A stretch of DNA of 64,000 bases from Fidelibacterota bacterium (GCA_002718585.1 PBFG01000019.1:33086-97085), one strand, 5' to 3'. Shown: positions 35,124-52,984, counted from the first letter of the stretch. Program-made: numbers and translations. Notes: generated by a model from the sequence alone, not told the origin.

Positions 35124-36053
35124 TTACCATTCTTCTTCTTCTTCTTCCTCAGGCTTGTTATTTACTAGCCATTCCTCAAAATCTTCAGGTTCATGAACTT
35201 GCATATAACCTTTCATAAAATAATGAGAATTCCCACATAATTGTGCACATGCTATTTGATAACCTCTATAATAAGAATCTCTAACACTTTCAGGAAGCAT
35301 ATCATAAGTATCCTGATCTTTATCTAATTTATTATTATAACGAACAGGATCATTTTCTTTTAAATATTCCAAGTATTCATCACTAGATTTTGTTGCCGTA
35401 AAGTAAATAGGTATTTCCATTCCAGGAATTGCATCTTGTTTGACTCTCATCTCTGGTAAAGCAAAACCATGAATAACGTCTCTAGACGATAATCTTATCT
35501 TTATCTGCTTTCCTTTGGGTATATGAAGCTGATTCATTGTAACGATATCATCAGCACCATAACCTTGCCTACTTAGCCCAATAAAATTTTGAGCTCCATC
35601 ATCTACTGAATCAGCATAAGTTTGACCAAAAACGCCATCTTCGCCTGGATAGTGGATATTCCACTGAAACTGTTGAGCTATGACTCTAATTTCTATTTCA
35701 GAATCATCTTTTACTTCTAATTTTTCATACTTTAAATCATAATATCCAGGGATAGCCAAAGCAAATAATAAGAATAGCTCAAACCCTATGACCCCAAATT
35801 CAGCATACTTAGAAAATTTACCCCTCAACCCTTGATGAGAAGCTTTTGGATTATTCTTACTAGAAAATCTTATTAAAACGTAAACCAAAAAAACACCCCA
35901 AAAAACAAATAAAATCAACATCAACATATGAACCCATCCATTTAAAACATCAGTTTTAAAACCAAACATTGAGCCATCATATGGAAAGCTAAGAAATGTA
36001 TCACTTATAAACTGACCAATTTTATCTATTATGTTTATTTCTACTTCTTTCAT
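35124..36053 (-). CDS. coxB: Cytochrome c oxidase subunit II (CuA), no fused cytochrome c, poly-Glu C-terminal tail
   Basis: CuA ligands HGFALPEM...CAQLCGNSHYFM. Two N-terminal TM helices. It ends NNKPEEEEEEEW. Confidence 0.9.
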   Translation of the reverse strand: MKEVEINIIDKIGQFISDTFLSFPYDGSMFGFKTDVLNGWVHMLMLILFVFWGVFLVYVLIRFSSKNNPKASHQGLRGKFSKYAEFGVIGFELFLLFALAIPGYYDLKYEKLEVKDDSEIEIRVIAQQFQWNIHYPGEDGVFGQTYADSVDDGAQNFIGLSRQGYGADDIVTMNQLHIPKGKQIKIRLSSRDVIHGFALPEMRVKQDAIPGMEIPIYFTATKSSDEYLEYLKENDPVRYNNKLDKDQDTYDMLPESVRDSYYRGYQIACAQLCGNSHYFMKGYMQVHEPEDFEEWLVNNKPEEEEEEEW

Positions 36054-36265
36054 TTAACTCCGCCTTCTATTTCATAAGCTCTTGCTCTTTTAACTAAAAC
36101 AAAAATACTAGCAGCAATACTGGATAAAACAAAAACAACAATGGATAATAAAAATAAAATACCATTATTCATACCTTCAGTAACAGGATGTTCAGGTGCA
36201 CCATAACATACAGCACATGCAAAAATATTTTGAATTAAAAAAATTGATAAAACTATATATTTCAT
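36050..36265 (-). CDS. Small signal-peptide/TM protein with a CxxC motif inside the cox operon
   Basis: MKYIVLSIFLIQNIFACAVCYGAPEHP followed by a TM helix. I prefer the internal ATG because the tracked start overlaps the upstream ORF by 38 nt. Confidence 0.45.
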   Translation of the reverse strand: MKYIVLSIFLIQNIFACAVCYGAPEHPVTEGMNNGILFLLSIVVFVLSSIAASIFVLVKRARAYEIEGGVK

Positions 36266-36266
36266 A

Positions 36267-36464
36267 TTAAAGATTCTTATATTTGTTAATAAAATTTTTT
36301 CCATAAATAACTAATAGTATTGAACTAACGATACTAAGAGCTATGTAGGATATATAAGCACTATCTGCATAAAAGTCCCACATTAAATAAGACCAAGAAC
36401 CAAAGTAAATCATTAATAAAACTGCAAAAGAAACAAAAATTATATGAAATAATCTTAGAGACAA
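36267..36464 (-). CDS. Small two-helix membrane protein inside the cox operon
   Basis: 65 aa hydrophobic ORF packed between coxIV and the CxxC microprotein. Confidence 0.4.
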   Translation of the reverse strand: MSLRLFHIIFVSFAVLLMIYFGSWSYLMWDFYADSAYISYIALSIVSSILLVIYGKNFINKYKNL

Positions 36465-36467
36465 GTT

Positions 36468-36833
36468 TTAATGCCCTCCTTTTTTGTTATAGTCTAATTC
36501 GTCGGAATCAAGGTGTTGCACATTTTCATAAGAACCATTTCCATATCCAACACTATTATTGTACCACATTATAGGCATAGCTAATAAAACAAAAAAGAAT
36601 AACATTGTAAATATCAGAGTACCATAAATCCATTTTCTCTCATCATTTAAATGCATAAAATGTGATGCAACTAAATATCCTTTAACACATGCAATTAATA
36701 AGCCAACTGCTAAGCCCATTGCATGCGAAGAAAAATGGATGTAGGATACACCCACAGTCGCTACTGTAAGTACTAATAATGCTATAAAAACATTTCTATA
36801 AATTTTAATATGATGTTTAATATCTTCACTCAT
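36468..36833 (-). CDS. Cytochrome c oxidase subunit IV (prokaryotic CtaF/CoxIV family)
   Basis: N-terminal HIKIYRNVFIALLVLTVATV, typical of bacterial subunit IV, with three TM helices. Located after coxIII. Confidence 0.75.
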   Translation of the reverse strand: MSEDIKHHIKIYRNVFIALLVLTVATVGVSYIHFSSHAMGLAVGLLIACVKGYLVASHFMHLNDERKWIYGTLIFTMLFFFVLLAMPIMWYNNSVGYGNGSYENVQHLDSDELDYNKKGGH

Positions 36834-36849
36834 AAGAATACCTCAATTA

Positions 36850-37440
36850 TTACAATAAATAAAGTGCTGGAAATAAAAATATCCAAACAAGATCTACAAA
36901 GTGCCAATACAAACCTATGACTTCAATTCTATTTGTAAACCTTTCTGGTTCACTATCCCACATTTTTATTCCTGGGCCTATTAGATACAAAAAAACTGCT
37001 ACTCCACCTAGTACATGAAGAACATGTAAACCAGTCATAGTAAAATAACAAGCAAGAGATGTACTTGATGAGGGGAATAAACCATGTTCAAATTTTGAAG
37101 CATATTCAAAGTATTTAACAATCAAAAAACCAAAAGAACAAAGCAAAGTTATTCCAAGATATAACTTAAATTTATTTAAATCTTTTAGCTTTAGAGCAAC
37201 CCATGACATCACCATGGTAACACTAGAGGTAATTAATAAGACAGTGTTTAATGTAGCTAAAGGAATATTTAATACAGTTTTAATATCGAACCAGTATGGG
37301 TTACTTGTTCTAAGCATTATATAGGCAGAAAATAATGCACCAAATAACATTACTTCAGATGCTAAAAATAACCAAATTCCTAACTTGGCATTATATAGAC
37401 CAGTATCAGGTCTTAATTCTTCGTTATATGGGATTTGCAT
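36850..37440 (-). CDS. coxC: Cytochrome c oxidase subunit III
   Basis: Short (5 TM) subunit III form with the [20 protein letters not shown]-terminus. Confidence 0.9.
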
Positions 37441-37451
37441 TAATATAACTC

Positions 37452-39131
37452 CTAATCTTTTTCATTTTGTGGCAAATAGTCTGTCTCAGAATCAGGAACA
37501 CTGTAATCATATGCACCTCTGTAAACATTTGGAACTTTTTCAAAGTTTCCATGTCCAATAGGAGGAGAAGGTGCAGCAACCCATTCTAAAGTTGTACATC
37601 CCCATGGATTTGGATCTGGGTTTTTCTCTGTTTTCTTAAGTAAAGTCATAACAATATTGACTATAAAAGGCAACTGTGCAATAGCTAGTCCCCACGATGC
37701 ATACATCATAAAATCATTATATTGAATAACATTTTGTGTATGTGCATAAGATTGGCCTCCATCTGCAAGCCTTCTTGACATACCTGCCAAACCCTGAAAA
37801 AACATTGGCATAAAGAATAAATTCATAAAAATGAAGGAGAAAATAAAATGTACTTTACCAAGAATTTCGTTTAGAGGTTTACCTGTAATTTTAGGAAACC
37901 AAAAATAAATACCAGAAAAAATTGCAAAAATTGTACCTGGAGCAACAACATAGTGGAAATGACCAATAACATAATATGTATCATGCAATGGAATATCTGA
38001 TAATGGTAAACCAAGAGGTAAACCTGTTAATCCACCAATACCAAACATTGGTATAAAGCTTAAAGCAAACAACATAGGAGTATTGTATCTTATAGATCCA
38101 CCATATAAAGATAAAATAAAACACGTTAAAAGTATTACTGATGGTACAGAAATAATCATTGTTGTTATTGCAAAAAAATTACTCATCCCCTGACCCATAC
38201 CAGTTAAAAACATGTGATGCGCCCATACAAGAAATGACATAAAACCTAAAAATATAACAGATTTAACCATTAAACTGTAACCCCATAAAGGTTTTCTTAT
38301 ATTATTTGAAATAACTTCAGCAATTATTCCCATTGCAGGTAAAATTAAAACATAAACTTCTGGGTGTGCTAAAAACCAAAACAAATGCTGCCAAAGAAGA
38401 GGACTACCTCCTCCAGAATTTGACATCATTTCTCCACCAACCACTAAACCTGTAGGAAGAAAAAAACTGGTACCTGCAACTCGATCCATTAATTGAAATA
38501 TTCCAGCGACTTCAAGTGGGGGAAATGCAAGAAGTAAAAGAAAAGATGTTACAAGTTGAGCCCAAACAAAAAATGGTAATCTCATCCAAGTAAGACCAGG
38601 TGCCCTAAGTTGGACAATAGTAACGATAATATTAACAGATCCCAATAGAGAAGATGTTATAAGAAATATCATGCCAATGAGCCAAACAGTTTGACCCGTA
38701 GTTGCAATATCAGCCAATGGAGGATACGAAGTCCAACCTGAATTTGCAGCACCTCCAGGTAAAGTAAAACCATAAAGCATCGTAACGCCACCTAAAAAAT
38801 AGGTCCAATAACTAGCCATGTTTAACTTAGGAAATGCCATATCTGGAGCCCCTACTTGCAAAGGAACTAAATAGTTACCATATGCACCAACTATAACTGG
38901 TACAATTCCTAAAAAAACCATAATTGTTCCATGCATTGCACCAAACGAATTATATGTATCTGGAGAAATTGTTCCTGAATGCACATGTTGATATCTCATG
39001 ACAATCATTAGTACAAAACCTAACAACATAAAAAATAATGCAGTTACTCCATATTGTATTCCAATCCATTTATGATCTTGTGAAAATATATATTTCGTCC
39101 AAAAACTTTCTTGGTGGTGCTCGTCGCTCAT
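37452..39131 (-). CDS. coxA: Cytochrome c oxidase subunit I (heme-copper oxidase, A-type)
   Basis: [18 protein letters not shown] and GHFHYV motifs; 12 or more TM helices. Confidence 0.95.
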
Positions 39132-39146
39132 AATTCTCCTATTAAA

Positions 39147-39479
39147 TCAATCAATTATTGTATCAAATCTTTCTTCGTACTCATTAGTATTTACCATTCT
39201 AATGGCGTCCCAGGTTAACTTGGTACATACTTTTGCGCAAATCTGACATCCTATACACTCATTTTCTCTAACATGTACTGGAGGAATTGGAGGCCATGTG
39301 TATTTATCAGCTGGAACAGGTTCAATACAATCTACAGGGCAAAAAGGGATACAAGCCTGACAACCTGTGCAATTATCTTCATCTACCCATGCAATTTTTT
39401 TTGGGCGTGTTTTCTTAGTATTTACCTTCTGGGGTAACTCAGGAACTTGCTTTAAGTGATCATATACTTTGGATGCCAT
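39147..39479 (-). CDS. 2x[4Fe-4S] ferredoxin-like protein, first gene of the cox operon
   Basis: Two cluster motifs, CTGCQACIPFCP and CIGCQICAKVC. 15 nt upstream of coxI. Confidence 0.85.
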   Translation of the reverse strand: MASKVYDHLKQVPELPQKVNTKKTRPKKIAWVDEDNCTGCQACIPFCPVDCIEPVPADKYTWPPIPPVHVRENECIGCQICAKVCTKLTWDAIRMVNTNEYEERFDTIID

Positions 39480-39663
39480 TGCTATAATTTAATAATATTT
39501 CTATTGTTTTAAAACAAACTTTTCAATCATATAGCCCATCATAAAAAAGGCTATACCTATGATAAAACTTTCATAACTCATTCTACTTGGAAATGATATA
39601 TATAAACTTACACCAATAATGGTCATACCTGTAAATTCTAATATTTTTGCAACATAAAAAATA

Positions 39664-40152
39664 TTAATTATCCTTATTTTTTAACTTATTATCCAGTTCA
39701 GTACCAACAATGGATAGTATATCAGAATTTTTAATAAGTGACTTATGAGATAACAAAATAACTTTTAAAAAATGTATTAGACTAAGGAGAAAAATAGAAT
39801 GATGCCAATACTTACTTAAAACCTTTGTTTGTACACCACCTCCAAGCACAAAAGCTGTTCCTACCAAAAGAATATTTAGTGTTAGGGGAGGAAATAAATC
39901 ACTCTTAATTTTCAAGACGTCTTTATAAGTATCCTTGTTTAAATCATATTTTATTATTAACTCTTTAACTTTTTTTCCTGCTCCAATGAGATAAAACATA
40001 ATAAGAGTTTGTGTAAACATGTATAATATAGTTGACACAAAAGAAAACGAAATATAGTTTGCATTTAAAACATTAAATCGAAAAATCCATTGAAAGCCAT
40101 TTAGAGATAATGAAATAAAAGATAAAAACATTAATATATAAAAAATAATCAT
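39664..40152 (-). CDS. Polytopic membrane protein, unknown
   Basis: 162 aa with about 5 hydrophobic helices. No motif recognised. Confidence 0.45.
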   Translation of the reverse strand: MIIFYILMFLSFISLSLNGFQWIFRFNVLNANYISFSFVSTILYMFTQTLIMFYLIGAGKKVKELIIKYDLNKDTYKDVLKIKSDLFPPLTLNILLVGTAFVLGGGVQTKVLSKYWHHSIFLLSLIHFLKVILLSHKSLIKNSDILSIVGTELDNKLKNKDN

Positions 40153-40231
40153 ACGTAAATTTAATATATAAAGTTGTAATGGTAGTATATATTTTGGTAA
40201 ATTATTATATAATTAATGGAGAATTTAAATC

Positions 40232-40957
40232 ATGTTTAGAATTTTAATATTAATATCTGTAGTTTCTTTCAACTTTTTTGCTGGAACAATAGAAGGCACT
40301 GTTTCATATGCTGGGAAAAATAGAGCAGCAAAACCTCTGAAAATGGATTCAGATCCAATCTGTGGCTCTTCACATAAAATCGCACCAGTTAAAGAAGATT
40401 TTATATTGAATGAAGAAAATAAATTTAAAAATGTAATTGTTTGGCTCAAGGATATAAAATTTGATGGAGAACTATCTAACGATACTGGTTTGATTGATCA
40501 AGTAGGTTGTATTTATACACCCCATGTCAATGCGTTTACAACAAGTCAAAAAGTTTTAATTAAAAATAGTGATAAAACTCTTCACAATGTTAATTCTCAG
40601 TCAAAAGTCAACGAAAGCTTTAATTCGGCTCAACCAGCTGGCGTACCTGAGATTGAAAAAACTTTTTCTAAAGCTGAAGAACCATTTTACGTAAAATGTG
40701 ATGTTCACCCATGGATGAAAGCATGGATAATGGTTGCTGATCATCCTTTCTTTGCAATAACAGACGAAAATGGAAACTTTAAAATAGATAATGTTCCAGC
40801 TGGAGAATATGAAATCATATTTTGGCAAGAAAAACTTTCAAATTTACCAAAGAAAAAATATGTCGAAGCTGACAATACTTTAAAGATAAAAGTGCTAGAT
40901 GAGGGCTCAACAGTAGCAGATTTTGAGTTTCAAAAACCCGTTAAAAAGAAAAAATAA
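40232..40957 (+). CDS. Secreted cupredoxin-like type-1 copper protein with carboxypeptidase-regulatory-like beta-sandwich segments and a poly-Lys tail
   Basis: Signal peptide. Candidate T1Cu ligands are His in DKTLHNV and C-x2-H-x2-M in KCDVHPWM. ENGNFKIDNVPAGEYEI is CarbopepD_reg-like. It ends QKPVKKKK. Confidence 0.65.
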   Translation: MFRILILISVVSFNFFAGTIEGTVSYAGKNRAAKPLKMDSDPICGSSHKIAPVKEDFILNEENKFKNVIVWLKDIKFDGELSNDTGLIDQVGCIYTPHVNAFTTSQKVLIKNSDKTLHNVNSQSKVNESFNSAQPAGVPEIEKTFSKAEEPFYVKCDVHPWMKAWIMVADHPFFAITDENGNFKIDNVPAGEYEIIFWQEKLSNLPKKKYVEADNTLKIKVLDEGSTVADFEFQKPVKKKK

Positions 40958-40963
40958 TTAATA

Positions 40964-41812
40964 ATGAAATATTTTTCTCTAAAAAGATTAATCTTATCGT
41001 TAGTCTTGTGTATTATTTCGTGTAAAACAAACCCTAATTATAATGTTACAGGTGTTATATTAGATAAAAACTTAAATAAAAGAGTTTTTAAAATAGATCA
41101 TGATAAAATTCCAGGTTTTATGGAACCTATGATTATGGACTTAAATGTTCATGAAAAAGTTGATATGGATAATTTTAATATACTTGATAGCGTAAGTTTT
41201 AACCTAATTATGACTGATGATTCACATTATACAATAAACTTTAAAAAAGTTGGCACTCGAATAGAATCTGATAATCATGAAGAACTATGGCAAGATGATT
41301 TGTATTCACCAAAGCAAATTGGTACAAAATTTGATAATTTTACATTTTCTAAAACTAATAATGAGCAGTACTCCCTTTATGGTAACAATAAAGATTATAC
41401 AATCATTTCTTTTATTTTTTCTAGATGTCCAATTCCTAACATGTGTCCTGCCGTTATTTCAAAGAATCAATTTTTAGCTAAAGAATTTGATAACCGTAAT
41501 ATTGATTTTTTAATTTTAAGTTTTGATTACTTGTTTGATACGCCTGAAATTCTCAAAAAAAATTATGGTTCAATTGAAGATAAATTTCCTAATATAAAGT
41601 TTTTATCAAGTACCAATCACTACAATGATTTAATACAACTGACAAAACAATCTAATGTTTCTTTTGGTGGTGTTGAAGATAATAATATTGGACATACAAT
41701 GATTACTTTAATCTTAGATAATAATAAAAAATTAATAAAATCATATCAGGGTATTGATTGGAAGCCTTCAAATTTTAAAAGAGATTTAACAAATTTTATA
41801 AATTTAAACTAG
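40964..41812 (+). CDS. SCO1/SenC-family copper chaperone fused to an N-terminal CusF-like Cu(I)-binding domain (lipoprotein)
   Basis: Lipobox ISCK. CusF-like HDKIPGFMEPMIM. Thioredoxin-fold FIFSRCPIPNMCP and a downstream His (NIGHTM). Confidence 0.8.
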   Translation: MKYFSLKRLILSLVLCIISCKTNPNYNVTGVILDKNLNKRVFKIDHDKIPGFMEPMIMDLNVHEKVDMDNFNILDSVSFNLIMTDDSHYTINFKKVGTRIESDNHEELWQDDLYSPKQIGTKFDNFTFSKTNNEQYSLYGNNKDYTIISFIFSRCPIPNMCPAVISKNQFLAKEFDNRNIDFLILSFDYLFDTPEILKKNYGSIEDKFPNIKFLSSTNHYNDLIQLTKQSNVSFGGVEDNNIGHTMITLILDNNKKLIKSYQGIDWKPSNFKRDLTNFINLN

Positions 41813-42471
41813 TGGACAAATCCTTTTTTCTTGACAACCATTTACTGGTATCAGGTATTTTATTAATAATAATTTCAGTAATCTTGTTTTTAGTTAAAAA
41901 AACTACCACTTTATACAAAATATTATTTTTTTCTCTTTTAATCAACTTCTTATCATTCTACTTAACTCTAATTTCCAATAATCTTTTTGACTTCACTATT
42001 CATCTACCAATTCATCTTTGCTATTTAACAGAATTAGGTATCTTAATTAGTTTAATTTTTAAAAATAAAAAGTTTTATCCAATTCTTGCTCTAAATAGCT
42101 TAGGAGGTGGTATTAGCGGCTTAACTAATTCTAATTTAGTACTTAATTCTTATTGGATAGAATTTTCTCATTTATATTTATCTCATATTAATCTAATTTT
42201 TTTCTTTATAATTGTATACAAAGAAAGATTTACAATTAATAAAAAAATGTTTTCTACGAGTATCTTAATTAATGGATCTGTGTTCTTTTTTTCTGCAATA
42301 TTTAATAAAATTTTTGGTTCTAACTACTGGTTCACTGTAAGTAGACCAGAGGGAAAAAATTTAACGCTTTTATTTTCTGATTGGCCTGATTATTTAATTG
42401 GTTTAATCATAATTGGATTATTTTCATACTATGCAACCTTTATAATTTTAAAAAAGAATAGATCTATTTAA
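41812..42471 (+). CDS. Integral membrane protein, unknown
   Basis: 219 aa with about 7 TM helices. The GTG start overlaps the Sco stop. Confidence 0.5.
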   Translation: MDKSFFLDNHLLVSGILLIIISVILFLVKKTTTLYKILFFSLLINFLSFYLTLISNNLFDFTIHLPIHLCYLTELGILISLIFKNKKFYPILALNSLGGGISGLTNSNLVLNSYWIEFSHLYLSHINLIFFFIIVYKERFTINKKMFSTSILINGSVFFFSAIFNKIFGSNYWFTVSRPEGKNLTLLFSDWPDYLIGLIIIGLFSYYATFIILKKNRSI

Positions 42472-42474
42472 AAA

Positions 42475-45400
42475 TTACCATTCCTCATCTTCGAAATCAT
42501 CCTCTTCTTCATCAGCATCGAATTCATATCCATTTATTTTGAAATATTCTTTAACAATTGTAGATATATCTGTAGGTCCTTCAATACTATAAATATAATC
42601 TGTCAAGCCTTCAAGCATAGCTTGTCTATCTCCATCTAAGCTTATGAGATCTTTACCCCATGTTTCTAGTGCATTATCAAGAGATAGAGCTATAGAATCA
42701 GGTATGTAAGGAGCTGGCATTTTAGTTCCTGGCATTATAGCTTGTGGATTATCGAGCCACCTAACAACCCAATCATGTCGTAGCCTTTCTTTTGTCATTG
42801 CAAGATTTGGTGCCCAAGTCTCAGGAGTTTGTTTTGGAAACTGATCTCCATAAAAGTGACAATTATTACAGGCTCCAAATTCATGTAACTTAGCTCCAGC
42901 TTTAAATTTAGCTGAATTGATATCAACAGCGAATGAATCCTCAATTAATAGGCTTCTTTCATCTAGGTGCTGAAAAGCCTTGATAATTGAATTCCATTGG
43001 CCATCAGTAAATTTAAAAGCAGGCATTCTTACTTGTAAATGAGGTCTGATAGTAGCGGGATTTTTAAAGAAATTAAATAACCAATCAGGCTGAGTTTTAG
43101 CACCTTGGGTATTTAAATTGGGTGGCGCATTTTCTATTTTACCAATAACATCAACCATGTGACCACCAAAGTTTTCTATAACGTGACATCCTTGACAATT
43201 ATATTGGTTAATTAATTTATAACCTTCAAAAACTGACTTATCATCAACTAAATTATAAGTAATTTTACTATCCGCAATTTTTACATTTGTAAAACCTAAA
43301 ATTGCAGTTACAATTGCTTCGATTTCTTCAGGTTTGAAATAAAAGTTAGGCATTCGACTTTTATCTTCATGTGCAACAATTTTATGTTTATCAAAAATTC
43401 TAGGATTAGCTAACTTTTGTTCAAACCATGCGTGAGTTGTATGATCAATATCATGGATATGACCAAAATCTAATTTACTAACAGGGACAGATCCCTCATA
43501 AGTTAGTTCAGCACCAATAGGCTTTCCATTTTCATATCCATCCATATCATGGCATGTATAGCATCCGTAATAATTTATACTTTTTTTAGCTACATATTCA
43601 TCAATTGCAGCATCACTCATGCTACTCAATCTTGCATCAACCTCAACTTTAGGAAATGATTTCATCATCCATCTTCTGGCAATATTATTTAGCTCTTCTC
43701 TATCTTCCACTACTGCAATTTCATCTTCAAATTCTTCGTTTTTGAAGGTTAAAAGGTAAGCTGTTATGTCTTTTGCCTCTTCATGGGTTAGTCTTAAATT
43801 CGGCATTTTCGTATCAGGCCAATACTTTTCAGGATGTTTAATCCAATTATAAATCCATTTTGCATCAGATTTAGATCCCATACCAATCAAATTAGGACCT
43901 TGATACTTTAATAGAGTATATCTATCCATTTTCTCGTACCCAACACCAGATGTATCAGGTTCATAGCCATGATTAGATATATACATTTCGTAAGGGACAT
44001 CTACGTCTCCTAATTCTGTAGATTCTGTGTTAATAACATGACATCCTTGACATCCAACTGCATTAAATAATTTTTGACCATTTTCTGCATTTCCAATAAA
44101 TTCACTGGAATTATCAAAATCTTTTTTATCACCATCAGGATATAAATATTCAGTTATTGCATAAATTGCAGCATTACTTCTTTTAACAGATTCTTCATCT
44201 GAGTTATTTGACTGATCAAAGAAGTGTGGCATCCACGTATTGTACCTAAAACCTTGCGGATTTTTAATCCATTTTTTTACCCAATCTTTATCTAATTTTT
44301 CATCTAAATGAGTTAAAGGTGGACCACTTTTCCCCATTGCTTGGTATGACTCAATATGATGACAATTATTACATCCTGATTGATCAATTAACATAAGTCC
44401 TAAAGCTAGTTTCTCACCACCCGCAAGAATTGGATCGGCCTCATGGCATTTAAAACAACCTGCTTGAGTGTATTTTGTTGGTAACATTGGTTGTAACCAA
44501 TGATGCATTTTTTTCCAATCATATTTTTCTTCCCATTCTTTTTTTTGTTCTGGAGAACCAGGCATATGAACTGATGATACAAACCCCGTACCTCTTCCCC
44601 TACCAGAATGACAGCTCGTACAACCGTATTGCTCAAATGGATGAGGTGATGAACTAGATACAAATAAATCAAGATTAGGATGACTAGTGAATGGCTGAGG
44701 TGCATCTTTATAGTCTGGATTACTTATACCTAAGTGGCAACTTGTACATCTATCGACACTTGGTACTTGAGCAAAATTAACGTCATATTTTATATCGTGA
44801 GCAACAACTTGATTAACCTTATAATAAGGATCCATAAAATCTAAAATAGGTAAATCCCTTACCAAATCACCGAGTTGATTCATAAATGTCATTTTAGTTC
44901 TATCAAGTTTTAAAATTCTATTATTTATTAAATTTACTTCTTTTAAATATTCATTTAATTCGTCTTTCTTATTTTTAAGTTCCAAGCCCATATTTTTAAT
45001 TGTAGATTCAATATCAAGAACTTGCAATTCATATTTCTCTTTAGTGATTTTAAGATTTTTCATTACTTCTAATGTTTCATAATACTTTTCCTTATACTCA
45101 AATTCATGACCGTGATGATGTTTATTTTTATCTTCTTTGGATGTATTTTCATCTTCATAATCATGATGGTAATTATTAGAGTGAACGATTTCGTCCTCAT
45201 AAAGATATTTTAGTTCATCAGCTTCCGCTTTTTTAAATAAATAATCCATATTTGCTTTATAAAATAAGCCTTTAACATATTCTAAATTTAATTCAAGGGA
45301 GTCAATTTCAACCATTTGAGCATTATATTTATCAAGCTCAAGATTATATTTTTCTTCGAATTCTACGCGTTGATCTTGAACATCAGATAAAGCTGATTCA

Positions 45401-45582
45401 AGTTTTTTATTAGATACTTCTATTTCGAGTTTTCTAAACTCTCTTTGATACCTTTTAAATTCATCATCATTATCATGATAAAATATCCATACGTATGATA
45501 AAAAAAATAGAATGCTTGATATTGCAAACCATTTATTTAATTTTTTTATATTGAAGTATCTTTCGTCGTTCTTATGAGCCAT
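42475..45582 (-). CDS. Membrane-anchored octaheme c-type cytochrome with a long coiled-coil stalk; terminal gene of the Rieske/cyt b operon
   Basis: Eight CxxCH motifs (CTSCH x2, CFKCH, CNNCH x2, CQGCH x2, CYTCH). N-terminal TM helix followed by about 200 aa of E/K-rich heptad-like sequence. It ends DADEEEDDFEDEEW. Confidence 0.85.
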   Translation of the reverse strand: MAHKNDERYFNIKKLNKWFAISSILFFLSYVWIFYHDNDDEFKRYQREFRKLEIEVSNKKLESALSDVQDQRVEFEEKYNLELDKYNAQMVEIDSLELNLEYVKGLFYKANMDYLFKKAEADELKYLYEDEIVHSNNYHHDYEDENTSKEDKNKHHHGHEFEYKEKYYETLEVMKNLKITKEKYELQVLDIESTIKNMGLELKNKKDELNEYLKEVNLINNRILKLDRTKMTFMNQLGDLVRDLPILDFMDPYYKVNQVVAHDIKYDVNFAQVPSVDRCTSCHLGISNPDYKDAPQPFTSHPNLDLFVSSSSPHPFEQYGCTSCHSGRGRGTGFVSSVHMPGSPEQKKEWEEKYDWKKMHHWLQPMLPTKYTQAGCFKCHEADPILAGGEKLALGLMLIDQSGCNNCHHIESYQAMGKSGPPLTHLDEKLDKDWVKKWIKNPQGFRYNTWMPHFFDQSNNSDEESVKRSNAAIYAITEYLYPDGDKKDFDNSSEFIGNAENGQKLFNAVGCQGCHVINTESTELGDVDVPYEMYISNHGYEPDTSGVGYEKMDRYTLLKYQGPNLIGMGSKSDAKWIYNWIKHPEKYWPDTKMPNLRLTHEEAKDITAYLLTFKNEEFEDEIAVVEDREELNNIARRWMMKSFPKVEVDARLSSMSDAAIDEYVAKKSINYYGCYTCHDMDGYENGKPIGAELTYEGSVPVSKLDFGHIHDIDHTTHAWFEQKLANPRIFDKHKIVAHEDKSRMPNFYFKPEEIEAIVTAILGFTNVKIADSKITYNLVDDKSVFEGYKLINQYNCQGCHVIENFGGHMVDVIGKIENAPPNLNTQGAKTQPDWLFNFFKNPATIRPHLQVRMPAFKFTDGQWNSIIKAFQHLDERSLLIEDSFAVDINSAKFKAGAKLHEFGACNNCHFYGDQFPKQTPETWAPNLAMTKERLRHDWVVRWLDNPQAIMPGTKMPAPYIPDSIALSLDNALETWGKDLISLDGDRQAMLEGLTDYIYSIEGPTDISTIVKEYFKINGYEFDADEEEDDFEDEEW

Positions 45583-45583
45583 A

Positions 45584-46702
45584 CTAAATATTAAAGAACC
45601 ACTCAGGGATTCCGATTATGTATTTAAGATTAAAAAACCAACGAAGGTACATTTTTATAGGAAGGGACAACATAGATAAGCCTAAAATCATCAAAAACGT
45701 ATATCTAGTAGGACCATATGCTTCATACATCTTTTTCAAAACTGTTTTTGCAAGTAAAACAGGTACGACAAATAAGTAAATACCCGTAACCAAGAAACCT
45801 ACTGACTCTCTGAGCAATATATTACTTGGTAAAGGTTGGCCCAAACCAATAACCCAAAAATATTCTGATAAATTAACATTATTTAATACTTCAAGTTTGT
45901 GAGGGTCCCAATATTCAAATGGTCCGAAGAAATTCCAATTAGGACCTCTAAAGAATGTACCGATAATAATTAAATAGACCCATAAAACTACCCATCCATA
46001 CATGAAAATAAAGTATCCTACCCTACGTTCTTTAAAAGAATAATAGCCATCTCCTTTTTTATTAATATCTACATAAGGTATAGCGCACATACCAACAATT
46101 ATCAATGTGGGAAAAATAACTCCAGCCAACCATGGATCGAAGTAAACAAGCATCTCTTGTAATCCCAAGAAATACCATGGAGCTTTGGAAGGATTAGGAG
46201 TTGCAGCAGGGTTAGCAGGTTCTTCCAAAGGAGCTGGTACTAATATGGACCAAACAATTAAAAAAACCATAAATAAAATCAAACATATAAATTCAATATA
46301 TACCAAATCAGGCCAAACCAAAACTTTATCTTCAGGATCATGGTATTCCATTGGTTTTTTACCTTCATCAAGTCTTGCATCATTTATGTAAGATTTTTTC
46401 ATAGCATACCAAGTAAAAAATGCCATACTATAAACCATAAGAACAATTGGGAAATTATCGCCCTTCATTAATATGATTTTAAAATTAGGATCTTGATAAC
46501 CTAAAACAAAAAAACCTGTGATGAGAATAAACTGAATCAAACCACCTGTGTTAGTCCAAAGCTTATCAATTCTTAGCTTTCTATTTATTCTATCAAACCA
46601 ATCAGTAGGTGGAAAAACGAATGGAAATATAGCTGTAATTAAAGTAAATGATATTGTTGGAGTAGATAAATAATCTATTGTATTTTTTAACGTTTCAATC
46701 AT
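45584..46702 (-). CDS. Cytochrome b C-terminal-domain / subunit IV-like membrane subunit (extended)
   Basis: Located directly after cyt b6. Contains SKAPWYFLGLQEML where the PEWY Qo-site motif is expected. Extra TM helices compared with PetD. Confidence 0.75.
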   Translation of the reverse strand: MIETLKNTIDYLSTPTISFTLITAIFPFVFPPTDWFDRINRKLRIDKLWTNTGGLIQFILITGFFVLGYQDPNFKIILMKGDNFPIVLMVYSMAFFTWYAMKKSYINDARLDEGKKPMEYHDPEDKVLVWPDLVYIEFICLILFMVFLIVWSILVPAPLEEPANPAATPNPSKAPWYFLGLQEMLVYFDPWLAGVIFPTLIIVGMCAIPYVDINKKGDGYYSFKERRVGYFIFMYGWVVLWVYLIIIGTFFRGPNWNFFGPFEYWDPHKLEVLNNVNLSEYFWVIGLGQPLPSNILLRESVGFLVTGIYLFVVPVLLAKTVLKKMYEAYGPTRYTFLMILGLSMLSLPIKMYLRWFFNLKYIIGIPEWFFNI

Positions 46703-46705
46703 ATT

Positions 46706-47500
46706 TTATAAAGGTCCTGAGATTCCTCCATCTTTTCTAATTCTCCAGAAATGAACTGCCATAAAAATCATTGCAATAAATGGAACAGCAATACAGTGAA
46801 GAACATAAAATCTCAATAAAGTTGCTTCACCTACAAATCTTCCTGCTAATAATGCAAATCTAACGTCAGAAGCAGAATGAATTAAATTTATATCTCCAAT
46901 AGCAAGTAAAGAAGCACCTGGGCCTTCAGAACCTAGGAAAGGTGTTGCTCTAGCCATATTAGTTCCAACAGTCACAGCCCAAATTGCTAATTGATCCCAA
47001 GGAAGAAGATAACCTGTAAAACTTAGCAAGAGAGTAAGAGTCATTAATATAACACCAACAGCCCAATTAAATTCCCTTGGTGGCTTATAAGATCCAGTCA
47101 TAAAAACTCTGAGCATATGAAGCCATGTTGTCAAAACCATACAATGCGCACCCCATCTGTGAATTTCTCTCATTATACCTAGAGGAACTTGTTCACCTAA
47201 ATCTATAATATCAGTAAATGCATATTCTACAGTAGGCCTATAATAAAACATTAATAAAATTCCTGTAATTGTAAGAACTACAAATAAGAAGAAGGATAAT
47301 CCACCCATACACCATGTATAACCAACCTTTACTGCATGTCTTGGTAAACGTGCTGGATGTAAGTGTAAAAAAACATTTCCTAAAACAGCATACATTCTTT
47401 GCCTTCTGGTTCTAGGAACTCCTGATCTAAAAATAGATTTCCATACAGGAGAATTTCCTACTTTATCTAATAATGATTCTTTTTTCTTATCTTCTGGCAT
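46706..47500 (-). CDS. Cytochrome b6-type subunit (N-terminal four-helix domain, split cyt b)
   Basis: Heme-ligand pairs are H-x13-H (HRWGAHCMVLTTWLH) and H-x14-H (HCIAVPFIAMIFMAVH). The 14-residue spacing is the b6/Bacillus type. Confidence 0.88.
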   Translation of the reverse strand: MPEDKKKESLLDKVGNSPVWKSIFRSGVPRTRRQRMYAVLGNVFLHLHPARLPRHAVKVGYTWCMGGLSFFLFVVLTITGILLMFYYRPTVEYAFTDIIDLGEQVPLGIMREIHRWGAHCMVLTTWLHMLRVFMTGSYKPPREFNWAVGVILMTLTLLLSFTGYLLPWDQLAIWAVTVGTNMARATPFLGSEGPGASLLAIGDINLIHSASDVRFALLAGRFVGEATLLRFYVLHCIAVPFIAMIFMAVHFWRIRKDGGISGPL

Positions 47501-47518: not shown

Positions 47519-48193
47519 CTAAACTTTCAAAAATGATTCTGTTCTATTCCATTCACCTTTTTCATAATTAAATTTCTTTGTTTTATCAACTAAAATTTGA
47601 CCATCATTGGATAAAACAATTCTATATCTTTCTAGTGGCCTTGGAGCTGGGCCTTCAAAATGCATGCCTGATGAACGAAATCCACTACCATGGCATGGAC
47701 ATTTAAATTTCCTATCTGCTTCCAGCCAATTAGGAGTACACCCTAAATGAGTACAAACTGTTGACAGAGCAATAATTTTTTCATCATCTCTTACGATCCA
47801 AACATTATGAGATTTTTTAAATCTTAGGTCTACTTTACCAGCTTCAAAGTCATTTGGAAAACCTATTTTAAAGCTTTGGGGTGGCTCAAATAAAACATTT
47901 GGAAACAGAAATCTTATTATGACAGTAAAAAATCCTCCTGTCGCCCCAGCAAATGCTAACCATCCAAGTGTCAACCAATTTAAAAAAGATTTCCTGTTAA
48001 TTATTTGACCAAAAGATAAGTCTTTATATTTATCAACAGGAAATTTATTATTGAATATTTCTAAAATTTCTCTGGCTAAATAATTTGGATAAATACCATT
48101 TCGCTTTGATTTGATATCATCGCATATAGAGTACCAATCTGTTTCACTTTTTGCTTGAATCAGAGATTGTTTCTCTTCTTTTGTAAGTTTCAT
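47519..48193 (-). CDS. Rieske [2Fe-2S] subunit with a cytoplasmic N-terminal extension of about 60 aa
   Basis: Cluster boxes CTHLGC and CPCHGS. Weak Tat-like NRKSFL before the TM helix. Confidence 0.9.
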   Translation of the reverse strand: MKLTKEEKQSLIQAKSETDWYSICDDIKSKRNGIYPNYLAREILEIFNNKFPVDKYKDLSFGQIINRKSFLNWLTLGWLAFAGATGGFFTVIIRFLFPNVLFEPPQSFKIGFPNDFEAGKVDLRFKKSHNVWIVRDDEKIIALSTVCTHLGCTPNWLEADRKFKCPCHGSGFRSSGMHFEGPAPRPLERYRIVLSNDGQILVDKTKKFNYEKGEWNRTESFLKV

Positions 48194-48254: not shown

Positions 48255-49142
48255 TTATTTATAATAATTAGTAAGTGTTTTCAATGCAAATTCTCTAATT
48301 TGTATATTTTTATCATTTTTTGATAAAAAAGTCAACTTATCTTTGAATCTGTCATCTACTAGTTTTTGAGTTACTGCAATAGCTATGTAGATAGAATTAT
48401 CTACTTCATCTACATTTACTCCAGTCCCATTGGCCTTGGATGGAAACAAACTGTAATAATCTCTATCTAAGAGATTAATAATAATACTAATTCCTGAATC
48501 ATCGTTCATTTTTGCAAGAGCAATTGCTGAATCCCATCTTATATTGGGTTCTTCGTAATCTAGCATATCAATTAATATTTGCTTATATTTCGAATCACCA
48601 ATTACTCCTAATGATATGATTGCAGCAAGTTTTTCAGAATCATGAATCGAATTCTTAATTATCAATTCTAAAGTCGAACAACTTTCTTTAAATTGTAACA
48701 TTCCTAATGACTGAATTGCAGCTATTCGATTAGTTAAATCTTCATCTTCATTCAATCCTTCTAACAAATAGGGACCAAAAGAATAGTCTTTAGTCTTTCC
48801 CATTGCCAGAGCTAAATAAGTTCTAACTCTTGAATCATCATATTTTGATTTTTCATACAAAAAAATCATTTTATTATTAAAAAGTTCTTTATTAATGACC
48901 TCAGACTTATCAAGCATGTTAGATAATTCGAAAGCAGATTGCCACCTTTTGGTAGAAGATCCCGATTGTATATTATCTAATAGGTCAATTGGAGTACTTT
49001 TTTCATATGTCAAAAATTGGAACATAAAAAAGAATAAAGCTCCAAAAATAGCTATCATAAATGGAATAAGAAAAAAAGAATAAAATAGAGCATAAACTCT
49101 ACTCGGATTCTCATTTATATTATCTTTTAAATTCTCACTCAT
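48255..49142 (-). CDS. Membrane-anchored HEAT-repeat protein
   Basis: N-terminal TM helix and repeated HEAT/PBS-lyase-like units (RIAAIQSLGML, KLAAIISLGVIGD, IRWDSAIALAKMND). Confidence 0.7.
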   Translation of the reverse strand: MSENLKDNINENPSRVYALFYSFFLIPFMIAIFGALFFFMFQFLTYEKSTPIDLLDNIQSGSSTKRWQSAFELSNMLDKSEVINKELFNNKMIFLYEKSKYDDSRVRTYLALAMGKTKDYSFGPYLLEGLNEDEDLTNRIAAIQSLGMLQFKESCSTLELIIKNSIHDSEKLAAIISLGVIGDSKYKQILIDMLDYEEPNIRWDSAIALAKMNDDSGISIIINLLDRDYYSLFPSKANGTGVNVDEVDNSIYIAIAVTQKLVDDRFKDKLTFLSKNDKNIQIREFALKTLTNYYK

Positions 49143-49899: not shown

Positions 49900-50736
49900 A
49901 TGGATACACTTACAATAAATTATAATGACAAAAATTTTAGAGAAGAATTCGTTCACTCATTACATAATACTGGCTTTGCAGTCATTAATGACCATCCAAT
50001 TGACCAAAACCTAATTAATGAAGTATATGATGATTGGTCTATTTTTTTTAAATCTGAGAAAAAGCATGATTATTTATTTGATTATGAGAAACAGGATGGC
50101 TATTTTCCTTTCAAATCTGAAAATGCAAATGATAGTGAAAGAAAAGATTTAAAAGAATTTTACCATATTTATCCTTTATGGGGTAGATATCCTGACTTTT
50201 TGAGTAAAAAAAGTTTAGTGCTTTTTGAAGAAATAACAAAATTTGGTAATATTCTTCTTGAAGCTTTAGATATTTTTTCACCTAATGAAATAAGAAAACA
50301 TTACAGTGAGCCTCTTAATAAAATGTCAAAAAGTAGTGATCAAAATCTTATGAGGGTTATTCATTATCCGCCTCTTAGAGATTCAGACCACCCAGATGAA
50401 ATAAGGGCAGCTGCACATACGGATATAAACTTAATTACTTTATTAATCTCAGGTTCACAACCTGGCTTGCAAGTTATGGATAAAAATAAAAATTGGGTTG
50501 ACATTAAATCTAAAAAAGGACAGATTGTAATTAACACTGGAGATATGTTAAAAGAATGTTCAAATGGCTATTTCCCATCAACTGTCCATCGTGTAATAAA
50601 TCCAGAAATTAAAAAAAATGTTTCTAGGTTTTCTATTCCATTATTTTTTCACCCTAGAGGAGATGTTGTTTTATCAAAAAAATATACTGCTGATGAATAT
50701 TTGTTTAAAAGATTAAAAGAAATCGGACTTAAATGA
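49900..50736 (+). CDS. 2-oxoglutarate/Fe(II)-dependent oxygenase (isopenicillin N synthase family)
   Basis: Facial triad context AAHTDINLITLL ... STVHRV and the RFSIPLFFHP tail. Confidence 0.8.
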   Translation: MDTLTINYNDKNFREEFVHSLHNTGFAVINDHPIDQNLINEVYDDWSIFFKSEKKHDYLFDYEKQDGYFPFKSENANDSERKDLKEFYHIYPLWGRYPDFLSKKSLVLFEEITKFGNILLEALDIFSPNEIRKHYSEPLNKMSKSSDQNLMRVIHYPPLRDSDHPDEIRAAAHTDINLITLLISGSQPGLQVMDKNKNWVDIKSKKGQIVINTGDMLKECSNGYFPSTVHRVINPEIKKNVSRFSIPLFFHPRGDVVLSKKYTADEYLFKRLKEIGLK

Positions 50737-51116
50737 TAAAAAAGCTATTTTTTCTATTATTCATTTTAGTGTTGAGTTGCAGTAAAAATAATCAGGAAGA
50801 CACAAAAAAAAACTTTCCATTTGTTAATAGCTACTCCGCAGATTTAAAAAATGGAAGAAAAGTCTTCAATAAAGCATGTATCACTTGTCATCTTTATGGT
50901 AGTGGAGGTTCCATTATGCTTAATGATAGTCTTTCATGGTCACGAGTAATATCAAAAAAAAATAAAATTGAAATTTATTCCAATGTTTATAATGGTTATA
51001 TGGGTGAGAAAGGACCAATGCCTTATAAAGGTGGATGCATTGATTGTTCAGATGAAGATTTATTAGATGCTATCGAATATATTTTATCTGTTAATGGTCT
51101 CAGCGTGGGTAATTGA
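50733..51116 (+). CDS. Lipoprotein class I cytochrome c (c5-like)
   Basis: Lipobox LSCS, heme motif CITCH, Met ligand region GPMPYKGGC and the c5-type disulfide C..C (GGCIDCSDEDL). Confidence 0.8.
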   Translation: MIKKLFFLLFILVLSCSKNNQEDTKKNFPFVNSYSADLKNGRKVFNKACITCHLYGSGGSIMLNDSLSWSRVISKKNKIEIYSNVYNGYMGEKGPMPYKGGCIDCSDEDLLDAIEYILSVNGLSVGN

Positions 51117-52109
51117 AAATTTTATTTGAACTAAAATCAGAACAATTAATGCTGCCATACCTTGATGAATAACACCCAAAACAACAGGTACTTTCAACAG
51201 CAAGGTCATTATACCTAAGTAAAACTGAATAATAAAAGCCATAAAGAGCATACCAGTAAACTTATTATAAAATTCCTCTTGTGTTTTTATAAAATACCAA
51301 CCAGCATATACCATTATAATTATTGCTAAAAATCTATGTGAAAATTGAAAAGTTTTCATATTTTCTAAAAAATTCATATAAAATGGTTGAATTGCCATCA
51401 GACCGTCTGGTATTAGCTTACCCTCCATCAAAGGAAAAGTATTCCATAATAATCCTGCTTTAGTTCCTGCAATAAAAGCACCAAAAAGAACCTGAATCAA
51501 ATATAAAATAAAAATTACATTTATATGCTTTGATAGGTAGTGATTATTTATTCTTCCAGCACTTTTATGACTTAAAGTAAGTTTTATCCATAGGGTATAA
51601 CCAAATAAGAAAAAAGCAGAAATCAAATGTGCTGATAAACGATAATGACTAACATGAGGGTTGTTTACTAACCCACTTTTAACCATAAACCAACCTAAAA
51701 TACCCTGAAAAATCACTAAAAAGATTGCAAATAACATTGGTTTTATTAGCCTATCAGGTAATTTCTTTTTATATAAAAATAAAAGAAAAGGAATTATAAA
51801 TACTAAGCCAATGATTCTTCCAAAAATCCTATGCAAATATTCCCAAAAAAATATTTTTTTATAACCTGATAAATCCATCTGCCTATATTTATTGATTTTT
51901 TGATATTCAGGAAATTTCTTATACTCTTCGAATGATTCAATCCATTGACTTTCACTTATCGGAGGAATTATGCCCATAACAGGTTTCCAATCTACCATTG
52001 ATAAACCAGATTGGGTTAAACGAGTGGCTCCTCCAATTAAAATCATTATAAAAATTAAGATAAGACATGAATTCAACCAAAATTTTATATGTAAGTTATT
52101 TTTTTTCAT
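51084..52109 (-). CDS. ctaA: Heme A synthase (COX15/CtaA)
   Basis: GGATRLTQSGLSMVDW..PP..W..F..YKKFPEYQ N-terminal signature, 8 TM helices with paired His. Confidence 0.85.
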   Translation of the reverse strand: MKKNNLHIKFWLNSCLILIFIMILIGGATRLTQSGLSMVDWKPVMGIIPPISESQWIESFEEYKKFPEYQKINKYRQMDLSGYKKIFFWEYLHRIFGRIIGLVFIIPFLLFLYKKKLPDRLIKPMLFAIFLVIFQGILGWFMVKSGLVNNPHVSHYRLSAHLISAFFLFGYTLWIKLTLSHKSAGRINNHYLSKHINVIFILYLIQVLFGAFIAGTKAGLLWNTFPLMEGKLIPDGLMAIQPFYMNFLENMKTFQFSHRFLAIIIMVYAGWYFIKTQEEFYNKFTGMLFMAFIIQFYLGIMTLLLKVPVVLGVIHQGMAALIVLILVQIKFSITHAETINR

Positions 52110-52984
52110 AAAAAAAGTGTATCAAAAATTATTAATAACATTAATAACGGCAAATAAATAATTGAAAAAATAAAAAGTTTTTTAATTTTTCTACTTGATT
52201 GTTCAAATAAAATATTTGCTGAATGAATTAAAAAAACTACTCCTAAAATCACTGCTCCAAACATATAAATAAAAGACGTAAGATTTAATAAATAAATACC
52301 AATAGAGGATCCGATTAAAGCCATAACAAAAAATACAATTTGGAATAATGTAGAATCTAAATTTTTACTTATTGAAGGAAGCATTTTAAATCCAGCATTC
52401 CTATAATCATCTTTATATATTATTGCTAATGATAAAAAATGAGGTATTTGCCAACAAAACAATATTAAAAAAAGGATTAATGCAGGCGAATTAATTTCTC
52501 CAGTAGCAGCTGTCCATCCTCCAACCGGAGGTAATGCCCCTGGAAAAGAACCAATAACTGTATTCCATTTTGACCTTGTTTTCGATGGTGTGTAAATACA
52601 TACATAACTAAATATTGTTAAAAAAGAAATTAGTGATGTTACAGAATTAATAAAAAAATAGAGATAAAGACATCCAGTAATCCCAAGAACTAATCCTAAA
52701 AAAAGAGCAAAATTTTTATTAATTCTATTTTGAGGCAAGGGTCTAGCGACTGTTCTTTTCATTTTCAAATCAAGATCAGATTCTAAAAATTGATTCAGAA
52801 TAGCTGATGAACTAGAGGTAAGTGAAATTCCAATAATCAAATGAAAAAAAATAATTATACTTGATAATTCTATCATTTGTAATTCAACAAACCTCAAACC
52901 TAGATAATAACCTAAGTATGCAGTTATAATTACTAAAATTGTAATTCTAACTTTAATCAAGGTCAAAATATCTTTAAATAACAT
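52106..52984 (-). CDS. ctaB: Protoheme IX farnesyltransferase (heme O synthase)
   Basis: UbiA-family motifs (DLDLKMKRTVARPLP, CWQIPHFLSLAI). Overlaps ctaA. Confidence 0.9.
   Translation of the reverse strand: MLFKDILTLIKVRITILVIITAYLGYYLGLRFVELQMIELSSIIIFFHLIIGISLTSSSSAILNQFLESDLDLKMKRTVARPLPQNRINKNFALFLGLVLGITGCLYLYFFINSVTSLISFLTIFSYVCIYTPSKTRSKWNTVIGSFPGALPPVGGWTAATGEINSPALILFLILFCWQIPHFLSLAIIYKDDYRNAGFKMLPSISKNLDSTLFQIVFFVMALIGSSIGIYLLNLTSFIYMFGAVILGVVFLIHSANILFEQSSRKIKKLFIFSIIYLPLLMLLIIFDTLFL

Follow-up and report, generated by a model that had tools for sequence, protein, structure and literature searches.

In a 64,000-nucleotide stretch of DNA from a Fidelibacterota bacterium (C21:33086-97085 of a 1.46 Mb genome assembly with 27.8% GC; hereafter the window), subunit II of a cytochrome c oxidase (CoxII) and an octaheme cytochrome c of a Rieske/cytochrome b complex end in matching runs of acidic residues closed by a tryptophan. 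These tails are a real, selected and flexible periplasmic motif carried by electron-transfer subunits. On the strength of comparative sequence data, we put at about 0.5 the probability that such (D/E)n-W ends form a conserved flexible docking motif, recruiting a lysine-tailed cupredoxin shuttle at both complexes. The closest public-database proteins are near-identical and are labelled Candidatus Marinimicrobia (SAR406).

Between 35 and 49 kb, the minus strand carries genes for a HEAT-repeat membrane protein, a Rieske protein, a split cytochrome b and the 1035-residue octaheme cytochrome c, as well as an oxidase operon in the order ferredoxin, coxI, coxIII, coxIV, a gene for an 84-residue protein, and coxII. 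On the plus strand between both operons lie the genes for a 241-residue secreted protein, which is the predicted cupredoxin, a CusF/Sco-like protein and a TMEM164-family protein. The features central to the argument are the following.

35124-36053, minus strand: coxII, the CuA subunit, 309 amino acids (aa), no cytochrome c domain (Pfam COX2 and NCBIfam CoxB matches, CuA motif, AlphaFold2 (AF2) model)
35127-35150, minus strand: acidic tail EEEEEEEW at the CoxII C-terminus (translation, homologue conservation, low predicted local distance difference test (pLDDT) scores)
40232-40957, plus strand: predicted secreted two-domain type-1 cupredoxin, 241 aa (AF2 model, Foldseek, invariant ligands)
40934-40954, plus strand: basic tail KPVKKKK of the cupredoxin (translation, orthologue conservation)
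42475-45582, minus strand: octaheme cytochrome c, 1035 aa, of the Rieske/cytochrome b complex (eight CxxCH motifs, Pfam cytochrome c domains)
42478-42519, minus strand: acidic tail DADEEEDDFEDEEW at the C-terminus of the octaheme cytochrome (translation, homologue conservation)

Two respiratory subunits share a rare C-terminus

Direct translation gives ...KPEEEEEEEW as the C-terminus of CoxII, within the longer stretch VNNKPEEEEEEEW, and FDADEEEDDFEDEEW as that of the octaheme cytochrome, with DADEEEDDFEDEEW as its acidic part. The matching ...EEW ends described in an earlier note on this DNA are borne out by these translations, as is the QKPVKKKK end (40931-40957) that it reported for the cupredoxin-like protein. 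The same note stated that CoxII has no fused cytochrome c domain, and indeed the protein contains no CxxCH motif.

Within the genome, the combination is exceptional. Only CoxII and the octaheme cytochrome end in [DE][DE]W among 2173 open reading frames (ORFs) of at least 60 aa, and only three of these ORFs have at least six D/E among their last ten residues. Tryptophan is the last residue of just 12 of the 1378 ORFs of at least 100 aa. If the two properties were independent, approximately 0.03 ORFs would be expected to combine an acidic end with a terminal W; two are observed, 7 kb apart. The earlier claim that no other protein has such tails therefore stands for the acidic tails, but fails for the lysine tail: Lys/Arg-rich ends occur on 13 genome ORFs, among them a second one in the window (13994-14866), and 23% of ORFs end in K. 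Basic ends are thus not rare in this genome, and the lysine tail is notable only through its conservation among orthologues.

Conservation and topology of the acidic tails

Both acidic tails are strongly conserved among the orthologues examined. An acidic run with a terminal W closes 112 of 118 CoxII homologues, counted down to 48% identity with an intact CuA motif required, and a further three end in F. The same ending is found in all 120 listed octaheme cytochrome homologues, down to 55% identity, such that the terminal Trp is present in 232 of 238 close homologues of the two proteins. Variants include GAAGAAGACGAAGACTGG and GATGATTGGGGTGATGACGACTGG, and DDW-G-DDDW is a frequent form. Because D and E interchange, and codons vary synonymously between orthologues, selection acts on the charge of the peptide and not on a DNA repeat; the same D/E swaps and varied codons rule out slippage of a GAA repeat as the origin of the tails. 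Controls in which the exact tail DNA patterns were reversed gave essentially no matches in the phylum. Among more distant CoxII proteins, the full motif is found in only 7 of 125 representatives of 50%-identity clusters, and looser acidic/aromatic ends recur.

Topology analysis agrees on a periplasmic location for both tails, and cytoplasmic placement was not seen for either. CoxII has the two transmembrane segments, cupredoxin-fold domain, CuA motif and hidden Markov model matches of a cytochrome c oxidase subunit II. Its AF2 model (pLDDT 86) comprises transmembrane helices at residues 31-62 and 79-110, a CuA β-barrel and a last helix at 289-298; hydrophobic segments span residues 36-66 and 83-105. 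The CuA ligand pattern H...C-x3-C-x3-H-x2-M is represented by HGFALPEM and CAQLCGNSHYFM. The Pfam COX2 match scores 38.3 bits against a cut-off of 22, and the match to NCBIfam CoxB has E = 3e-34, yet falls under the equivalog cut-off. The tail itself, residues 299-309, is modeled with low confidence (pLDDT ~60 for 301-309, and below 50 for 307-309), suggesting that it is flexible or disordered. The octaheme cytochrome has a single hydrophobic segment, an N-terminal anchor at residues 17-36, and eight CxxCH motifs between residues 279 and 905. Since heme c sites must be periplasmic, and the tail follows the last heme domain, this tail is periplasmic as well. Both tails thus adjoin, in the periplasm, the presumed electron-exit (octaheme) and electron-entry (CoxII) modules.

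A cupredoxin with a conserved lysine tail is encoded between the operons

The 241-aa protein encoded between the two operons is, by its modeled Greek-key fold and its ligands, a predicted type-1 cupredoxin that lies outside sequence family PF00127. When its AF2 model (pLDDT 88) was compared with the PDB by Foldseek, the top matches were pseudoazurin, plastocyanin and amicyanin, with probability 1.00 and a target-normalised TM-score of up to 0.73. None of the ligands H118, C156, H159 and M162 varies in an alignment of 55 orthologues, and all of 120 orthologues have C[DN]VHxWM, which here reads CDVHPWM, an amicyanin-type C-x2-H-x2-M ligand loop. The cupredoxin core (approximately residues 66-170) is inserted in a CarboxypepD_reg-like β-sandwich formed by a strand at residues 17-26 and by residues 172-235, and the N-terminus resembles a signal peptide with no lipobox. 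Pfam and NCBIfam searches returned no cupredoxin-family match for this protein, only sub-threshold matches of the CarboxypepD_reg type, and a PF00127 (Copper-bind) search of the genome found other loci but not this gene.

The basic end of the protein is conserved: K is the last residue in 116 of 120 orthologues, KK closes 109 of the 120, and F-x-F-x-(K/R)-P-x-K-K-K is the usual form. Consistent positive charge is confined to the last nine residues, where it averages +3.6; the lysines on either side of the copper loop, K155 and K163, show more than 90% conservation. AT-rich codon usage was considered as the source of the lysine tail and rejected, since 109 of the 120 orthologues keep the KK end and a contig of ~40% GC has a run of ten lysines (K10).

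Further PF00127 domains lie outside the window, at C19:23577-23819, C4:1055-1612 and C3:8978-9232. The first belongs to a small acidic lipoprotein cupredoxin, whereas the other copies are embedded in very large secreted proteins, 498 aa and 1449 aa long. The small lipoprotein was considered as a shared partner for the tails and rejected, being strongly acidic (1 K+R versus 12 D+E).

Gene linkage and covariation of the tails

Across 20 related clusters from several families of the class, the recurrent order is HEAT-repeat protein, Rieske, cytochrome b and octaheme cytochrome, then the cupredoxin, then coxI-III-IV-II. The cupredoxin gene lies between the operons in 19 of these clusters, and the octaheme gene follows Rieske and split cytochrome b genes in 19; conservation does not extend to the Sco-like, ferredoxin and TMEM164 genes. 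In a wider sample of 201 genomes of the phylum, this type of CoxII is encoded in 38 and the cupredoxin in 53, the latter including 37 of the 38 CoxII genomes.

The tails also vary together. In family f20, which belongs to a sister class, the Rieske/cytochrome b-octaheme-cupredoxin order is kept and CoxII of this type is absent; here the octaheme cytochrome ends ...DYILQLGG and the cupredoxin ...AKFSPKS or ...AKFSS, such that acidic and lysine tails are both missing. Family f5 is intermediate, with a tailless octaheme cytochrome, a CoxII ending ...DDWEDW, and cupredoxins ending KPKSK, TRTAK or RRRK. The ~40% GC contig, which is more distant, encodes a CoxII ending ...DSDDEEGW beside the cupredoxin with ten terminal lysines. 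These contrasts, drawn from sequence, fit a functional coupling of the tails. A role for the cupredoxin purely as a chaperone of CuA assembly is unlikely, as its gene adjoins the octaheme gene in family f20, where this oxidase is absent, and a Sco-like gene is found in only 5 of the 20 clusters.

A proposed shared docking handle and its alternatives

The earlier note suggested that the acidic tails dock a basic electron shuttle, with the cupredoxin or a cytochrome c5 as candidates. For the cupredoxin, the comparative data are supportive (fold, ligands, conserved KK end, synteny and covariation); cytochrome c5 is disfavored, and the idea as a whole needs the qualifications given below. Tails of the same type, acidic, Trp-ended and periplasmic, are present on both the donor and the acceptor complex. 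In the mechanism we propose, the tail of the octaheme cytochrome would be a handle at the periplasmic electron-exit subunit of the Rieske/cytochrome b complex, and that of CoxII a handle at the electron-entry subunit of the aa3-type oxidase. In the aerobic lineages, both would recruit the same small carrier, the secreted cupredoxin encoded between the operons, whose complementary charge would come from its (K/R)P-x-KKK tail and from K155 and K163 beside the copper loop. Donor and acceptor would thus show one handle to one shuttle, much as cytochrome c uses one face for bc1 and oxidase. The near-invariance of the terminal Trp suggests that it inserts into a specific hydrophobic pocket, and that charge alone is not what is recognized. 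We infer from these patterns that the tails may physically bind the cupredoxin, that electrons may pass from octaheme cytochrome to cupredoxin to CuA, and that the Trp may contribute to docking.

Several observations weigh against this proposal. Only the C-terminal tail and a few conserved lysines of the candidate carrier are basic; its folded body is neutral to acidic, and the net charge of the mature protein is -2 here and ranges from -10 to +14 in orthologues. Some genomes with acidic tails encode cupredoxins with weakly basic ends (e.g. ...GPQKN and ...RPNNSH), and anionic membrane lipids are an alternative target for the lysine tail. The number of independent evolutionary events behind the covariation of the tails is very small, and one 100% complete genome (G030) keeps both acidic tails with no detectable cupredoxin homolog or PF00127 protein. 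Moreover, the tail occurs on other periplasmic proteins. A c554-like tetraheme cytochrome bears the same acidic W-ended tail in five genomes (G111, G127, G199, G012 and G076), of which the last three encode no CoxII, octaheme cytochrome or cupredoxin, and a 185-aa lipoprotein of G196 (L208:7896-8453) ends ...EDDDDDWGDEDW. The presence of the tail on other periplasmic proteins in genomes that lack the cupredoxin means that the cupredoxin cannot be its sole partner.

This wider distribution keeps alive a reading in which the tails bind a structural partner and not a shuttle. They would then be assembly tags, bound by the other complex or by a scaffold such as the HEAT-repeat protein, that hold the quinol oxidase and the terminal oxidase, and in other lineages further redox modules, in one periplasmic assembly. 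The earlier note had offered a tag for supercomplex assembly or sorting as its alternative; we retain the assembly part as a possible but doubtful rival, and find the sorting part unsupported by the anatomy of the tails. A near-invariant terminal Trp would suit a specific pocket on such a partner, the tail is portable over unrelated periplasmic proteins (the tetraheme cytochrome of the Mo/FeS/NrfD module and the lipoprotein), G030 retains both tails without the cupredoxin, and the HEAT-repeat protein is co-encoded in 14 of the 20 clusters. The acidic domain of Paracoccus cytochrome c1 was likewise reported to serve supercomplex formation and not electron transfer. However, the soluble part of the HEAT-repeat protein is itself acidic, with an isoelectric point of ~5 in all homologues examined, which does not support it as a basic reader of the tails; no basic surface was found on a possible partner, and this reading does not account for the cupredoxin lysine tail covarying with the acidic tails. 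A related and similarly tentative idea is that (D/E)n-W is a portable periplasmic 'address' of Marinimicrobia, which would plug redox modules into a common hub, be it carrier or scaffold, whose basic pocket would accept the Trp. The modules would include CoxII, the octaheme cytochrome, the Mo/FeS/NrfD tetraheme cytochrome and an Ig-like lipoprotein, and the Lys-tailed cupredoxin would perhaps be only one client or reader among them. Were this so, it would describe a modular respiratory network built by linear motifs, with a logic like that of dockerin and cohesin.

It is unlikely that the tails dock another or an additional carrier, such as the cytochrome c5 lipoprotein or some other basic protein, while the lysine tail serves, for instance, retention at an anionic membrane surface. 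Polybasic ends are a common membrane-binding device, acidic tails are present in genomes without the cupredoxin, and a cytochrome c5-like lipoprotein is encoded beside ctaA and ctaB in the window (50733-51116). This lipoprotein is nevertheless encoded in only 13 of the 201 genomes, in only 5 of the 38 with CoxII, and nowhere in the 20 clusters, and the mature form has a net charge of ~+1; on these grounds it was rejected as a general shared partner. The small cupredoxin encoded on C19 is strongly acidic, and the lysine tail is missing exactly where the acidic tails are missing. There is also a small chance that the tail acts in a non-specific, physicochemical way and has no defined partner, its function being, for example, solubility, binding of Mg2+/Ca2+ or other metals, or membrane repulsion. 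Acidic Trp-ended C-termini are found on many unrelated, often cytoplasmic, bacterial and archaeal proteins, and the ends of distant CoxII relatives are often looser; yet bulk charge requires neither a terminal aromatic residue, kept here in nearly all close homologues, nor restriction to electron-transfer subunits, and the tail is confined to two proteins of the genome. We give least weight to the view that the tail directs sorting, processing or quality control, either as a C-terminal propeptide or as a label for a periplasmic PDZ-type protease or chaperone, and is absent from or irrelevant in the mature complexes. Every tail carrier is an exported protein, CoxII is known to be processed at its C-terminus in Paracoccus and Rhodobacter, and PDZ domains read C-terminal aromatic residues. 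The anatomy is nonetheless wrong for LPXTG/sortase, PEP-CTERM/exosortase, GlyGly-CTERM/rhombosortase or type IX secretion system C-terminal domain signals: the tails comprise 8-15 acidic residues and a Trp at the extreme C-terminus, with no hydrophobic helix/basic cluster or folded domain of ~80-100 aa after them. Furthermore, CoxII and c-type cytochromes mature via different machineries, no candidate reader enzyme is conserved in the 20 clusters, and the complementary lysine tail and its covariation would be unexplained.

Comparison with known carriers and linear motifs

Docking of one carrier face on negative surfaces of both complexes is an accepted principle, and the cytochrome c/bc1/oxidase system, in which the positive face of a small carrier docks on negative donor and acceptor surfaces, resembles the docking proposed here (PMC8361435). 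In the window, by contrast, the negative charge lies in a short peptide at the C-terminus, which has a near-invariant Trp and takes the same form on both complexes. A copper protein is the candidate carrier here, and its positive charge is concentrated in the tail instead of on a folded face; an octaheme cytochrome, moreover, stands in place of cytochrome c1 in the complex III analogue. Extra acidic, poorly structured elements on the complex III side are familiar from the QCR6/UQCRH hinge protein and the acidic domain of Paracoccus cytochrome c1. In caa3 oxidases, a cytochrome c domain is fused at the C-terminus of subunit II, that is, at the site of the CoxII tail described here. The CoxII C-terminus likewise holds a donor module near CuA in those enzymes, whereas in the window an acidic Trp-ended peptide of 8-15 residues replaces the fused heme domain and would give non-covalent capture of a free carrier.

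Pseudoazurin, amicyanin and plastocyanin share the core fold and the His/Cys/His/Met ligands of the predicted cupredoxin, with an amicyanin-type C-x2-H-x2-M loop as here, and charge-guided docking, for example via the lysine ring of pseudoazurin, is a known theme. Unlike these proteins, the cupredoxin of the window is inserted in a CarboxypepD_reg-like sandwich, has no Pfam Copper-bind match, bears a conserved poly-Lys tail, and is linked to a Rieske/cytochrome b-octaheme operon and an aa3-type oxidase operon. A cupredoxin partnering an oxidase has a precedent in AcoP of Acidithiobacillus ferrooxidans, which is encoded with respiratory genes and interacts with a multiheme cytochrome and an oxidase (PMC4059628, PMC5982212). 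AcoP differs in being a single-domain, membrane-anchored green copper protein of an acidophile, for which no complementary charged tails are described.

Acidic-aromatic linear motifs are known from the C-tail of single-stranded DNA-binding protein (SSB; ...DDDIPF), from tubulin/EB1 (...EEY/F), and from the acidic region of WASP with its conserved Trp. In these, a disordered acidic run is combined with an aromatic residue that fits into a pocket of a basic surface, and several clients share the motif; they differ from the tails described here in being cytoplasmic and unrelated in function. We know of no acidic-aromatic C-terminal motif on periplasmic respiratory complexes, and the literature searched yielded none, nor any description of these tails or of the two-domain cupredoxin.

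Current understanding of how electrons pass through the periplasm from complex III-type to complex IV-type enzymes comes mainly from cytochrome c and its docking on folded acidic surfaces. If correct, the docking proposal would represent a different solution, in which a disordered acidic Trp-ended tail on both complexes is matched by the lysine tail of a copper carrier. Such a tail-to-tail tether would operate in very abundant uncultured ocean bacteria with small cells and streamlined genomes, and may also reflect iron economy, with copper in place of a heme carrier. If the motif is portable, it would provide a sequence signature with which to predict members of one electron-transfer network in metagenomes.

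Related C-termini on other proteins

The tailed tetraheme cytochrome is encoded in an operon (L027:9316-17599 in G111; also L028, L029, L032 and L174) with the order tetraheme cytochrome, pentaheme cytochrome, a molybdopterin subunit of 806 aa exported by twin-arginine translocation, a 4Fe-4S protein, an NrfD-like protein, a porin-like protein of 412 aa and a 14-heme cytochrome. An EB_dh/DOMON lipoprotein is encoded just upstream. This arrangement looks like a quinone module of the Qrc or alternative complex III (ACIII) kind, joined to a possible porin-cytochrome conduit. The tailed lipoprotein of G196 has the lipobox LLTAGC and no cofactor motif, and belongs to a family whose octaheme cytochrome lost its tail.

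Some relatives encode a second oxidase, whose CoxII has a distinct C-terminus that is conserved and rich in Trp, ...WGW(Q/V/E)WKE(L/V)(K/L), after an acidic stretch (L157:4418-5224, L162:3343-4218 and L166:15703-16632). In family f25, proteins of ~115 aa (L030:9616-9951 and L031:9923-10270) combine a zinc-ribbon-like CPNCEE... motif with an acidic run and W end; these are probably cytoplasmic and unrelated to the respiratory tails. To place the motif more widely, GTDB species genomes were scanned for a DNA pattern of six acidic codons, W and stop. Among the matches listed, most are unrelated proteins, often cytoplasmic and LysW-like with a zinc ribbon. Unrelated acidic W-ended C-termini are thus common in other phyla, and the motif alone is not diagnostic outside its respiratory context.

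Neighboring genes

The remaining features of the two operons and their surroundings are given below.

36050-36304, minus strand: 84-aa protein with two transmembrane segments and a CxxC motif (ORF, two hydrophobic segments); its end overlaps the coxII start
36468-36833, 36850-37440 and 37452-39131, minus strand: coxIV, coxIII and coxI, respectively (Pfam COX4_pro and COX1 matches)
40964-41812, plus strand: candidate copper chaperone, CusF-like and SCO1/SenC-like, with a lipoprotein-like N-terminus (Pfam CusF_Ec, SCO1-SenC)
45584-46702 and 46706-47500, minus strand: subunit IV-like C-terminal part and cytochrome b6-like N-terminal part of cytochrome b, respectively (Pfam Cytochrom_B_C, Cytochrome_B)
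47519-48193, minus strand: Rieske protein (Pfam Rieske match)
48255-49142, minus strand: membrane-anchored HEAT-repeat protein, upstream of the Rieske gene (Pfam HEAT_2 match)
50733-51116, plus strand: monoheme cytochrome c5-like lipoprotein, alternative carrier candidate (weak NCBIfam c551/c6 matches, lipobox LSC)

The coxI, coxIII and coxIV genes are kept in 17-20 of the 20 related clusters, and the 84-aa protein has homologs in 10. The latter gave no family match in Pfam or NCBIfam searches; it bears a CAVCYG motif, and a similar small CxxC protein is encoded upstream of coxII in the distant contig L209. It may be an extra oxidase subunit or an assembly factor. Directly upstream of coxI is the gene for a 110-aa 2x[4Fe-4S] ferredoxin (39147-39479, minus strand), an unusual neighbor for an oxidase operon that occupies the same place in only 4 of the 20 clusters. 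The Sco1/SenC-like protein combines an N-terminal CusF-like domain with a variant CPIPNMCP motif, and is present in only 5 of the clusters. The start of the TMEM164-family membrane protein gene (41812-42471, plus strand) overlaps the Sco-like gene, and this gene is absent from all 20 related clusters. Further along, the cytochrome c5-like gene converges on ctaA, the heme A synthase gene, with a 33-nucleotide overlap of the gene ends, and ctaB follows ctaA (50733-52984).

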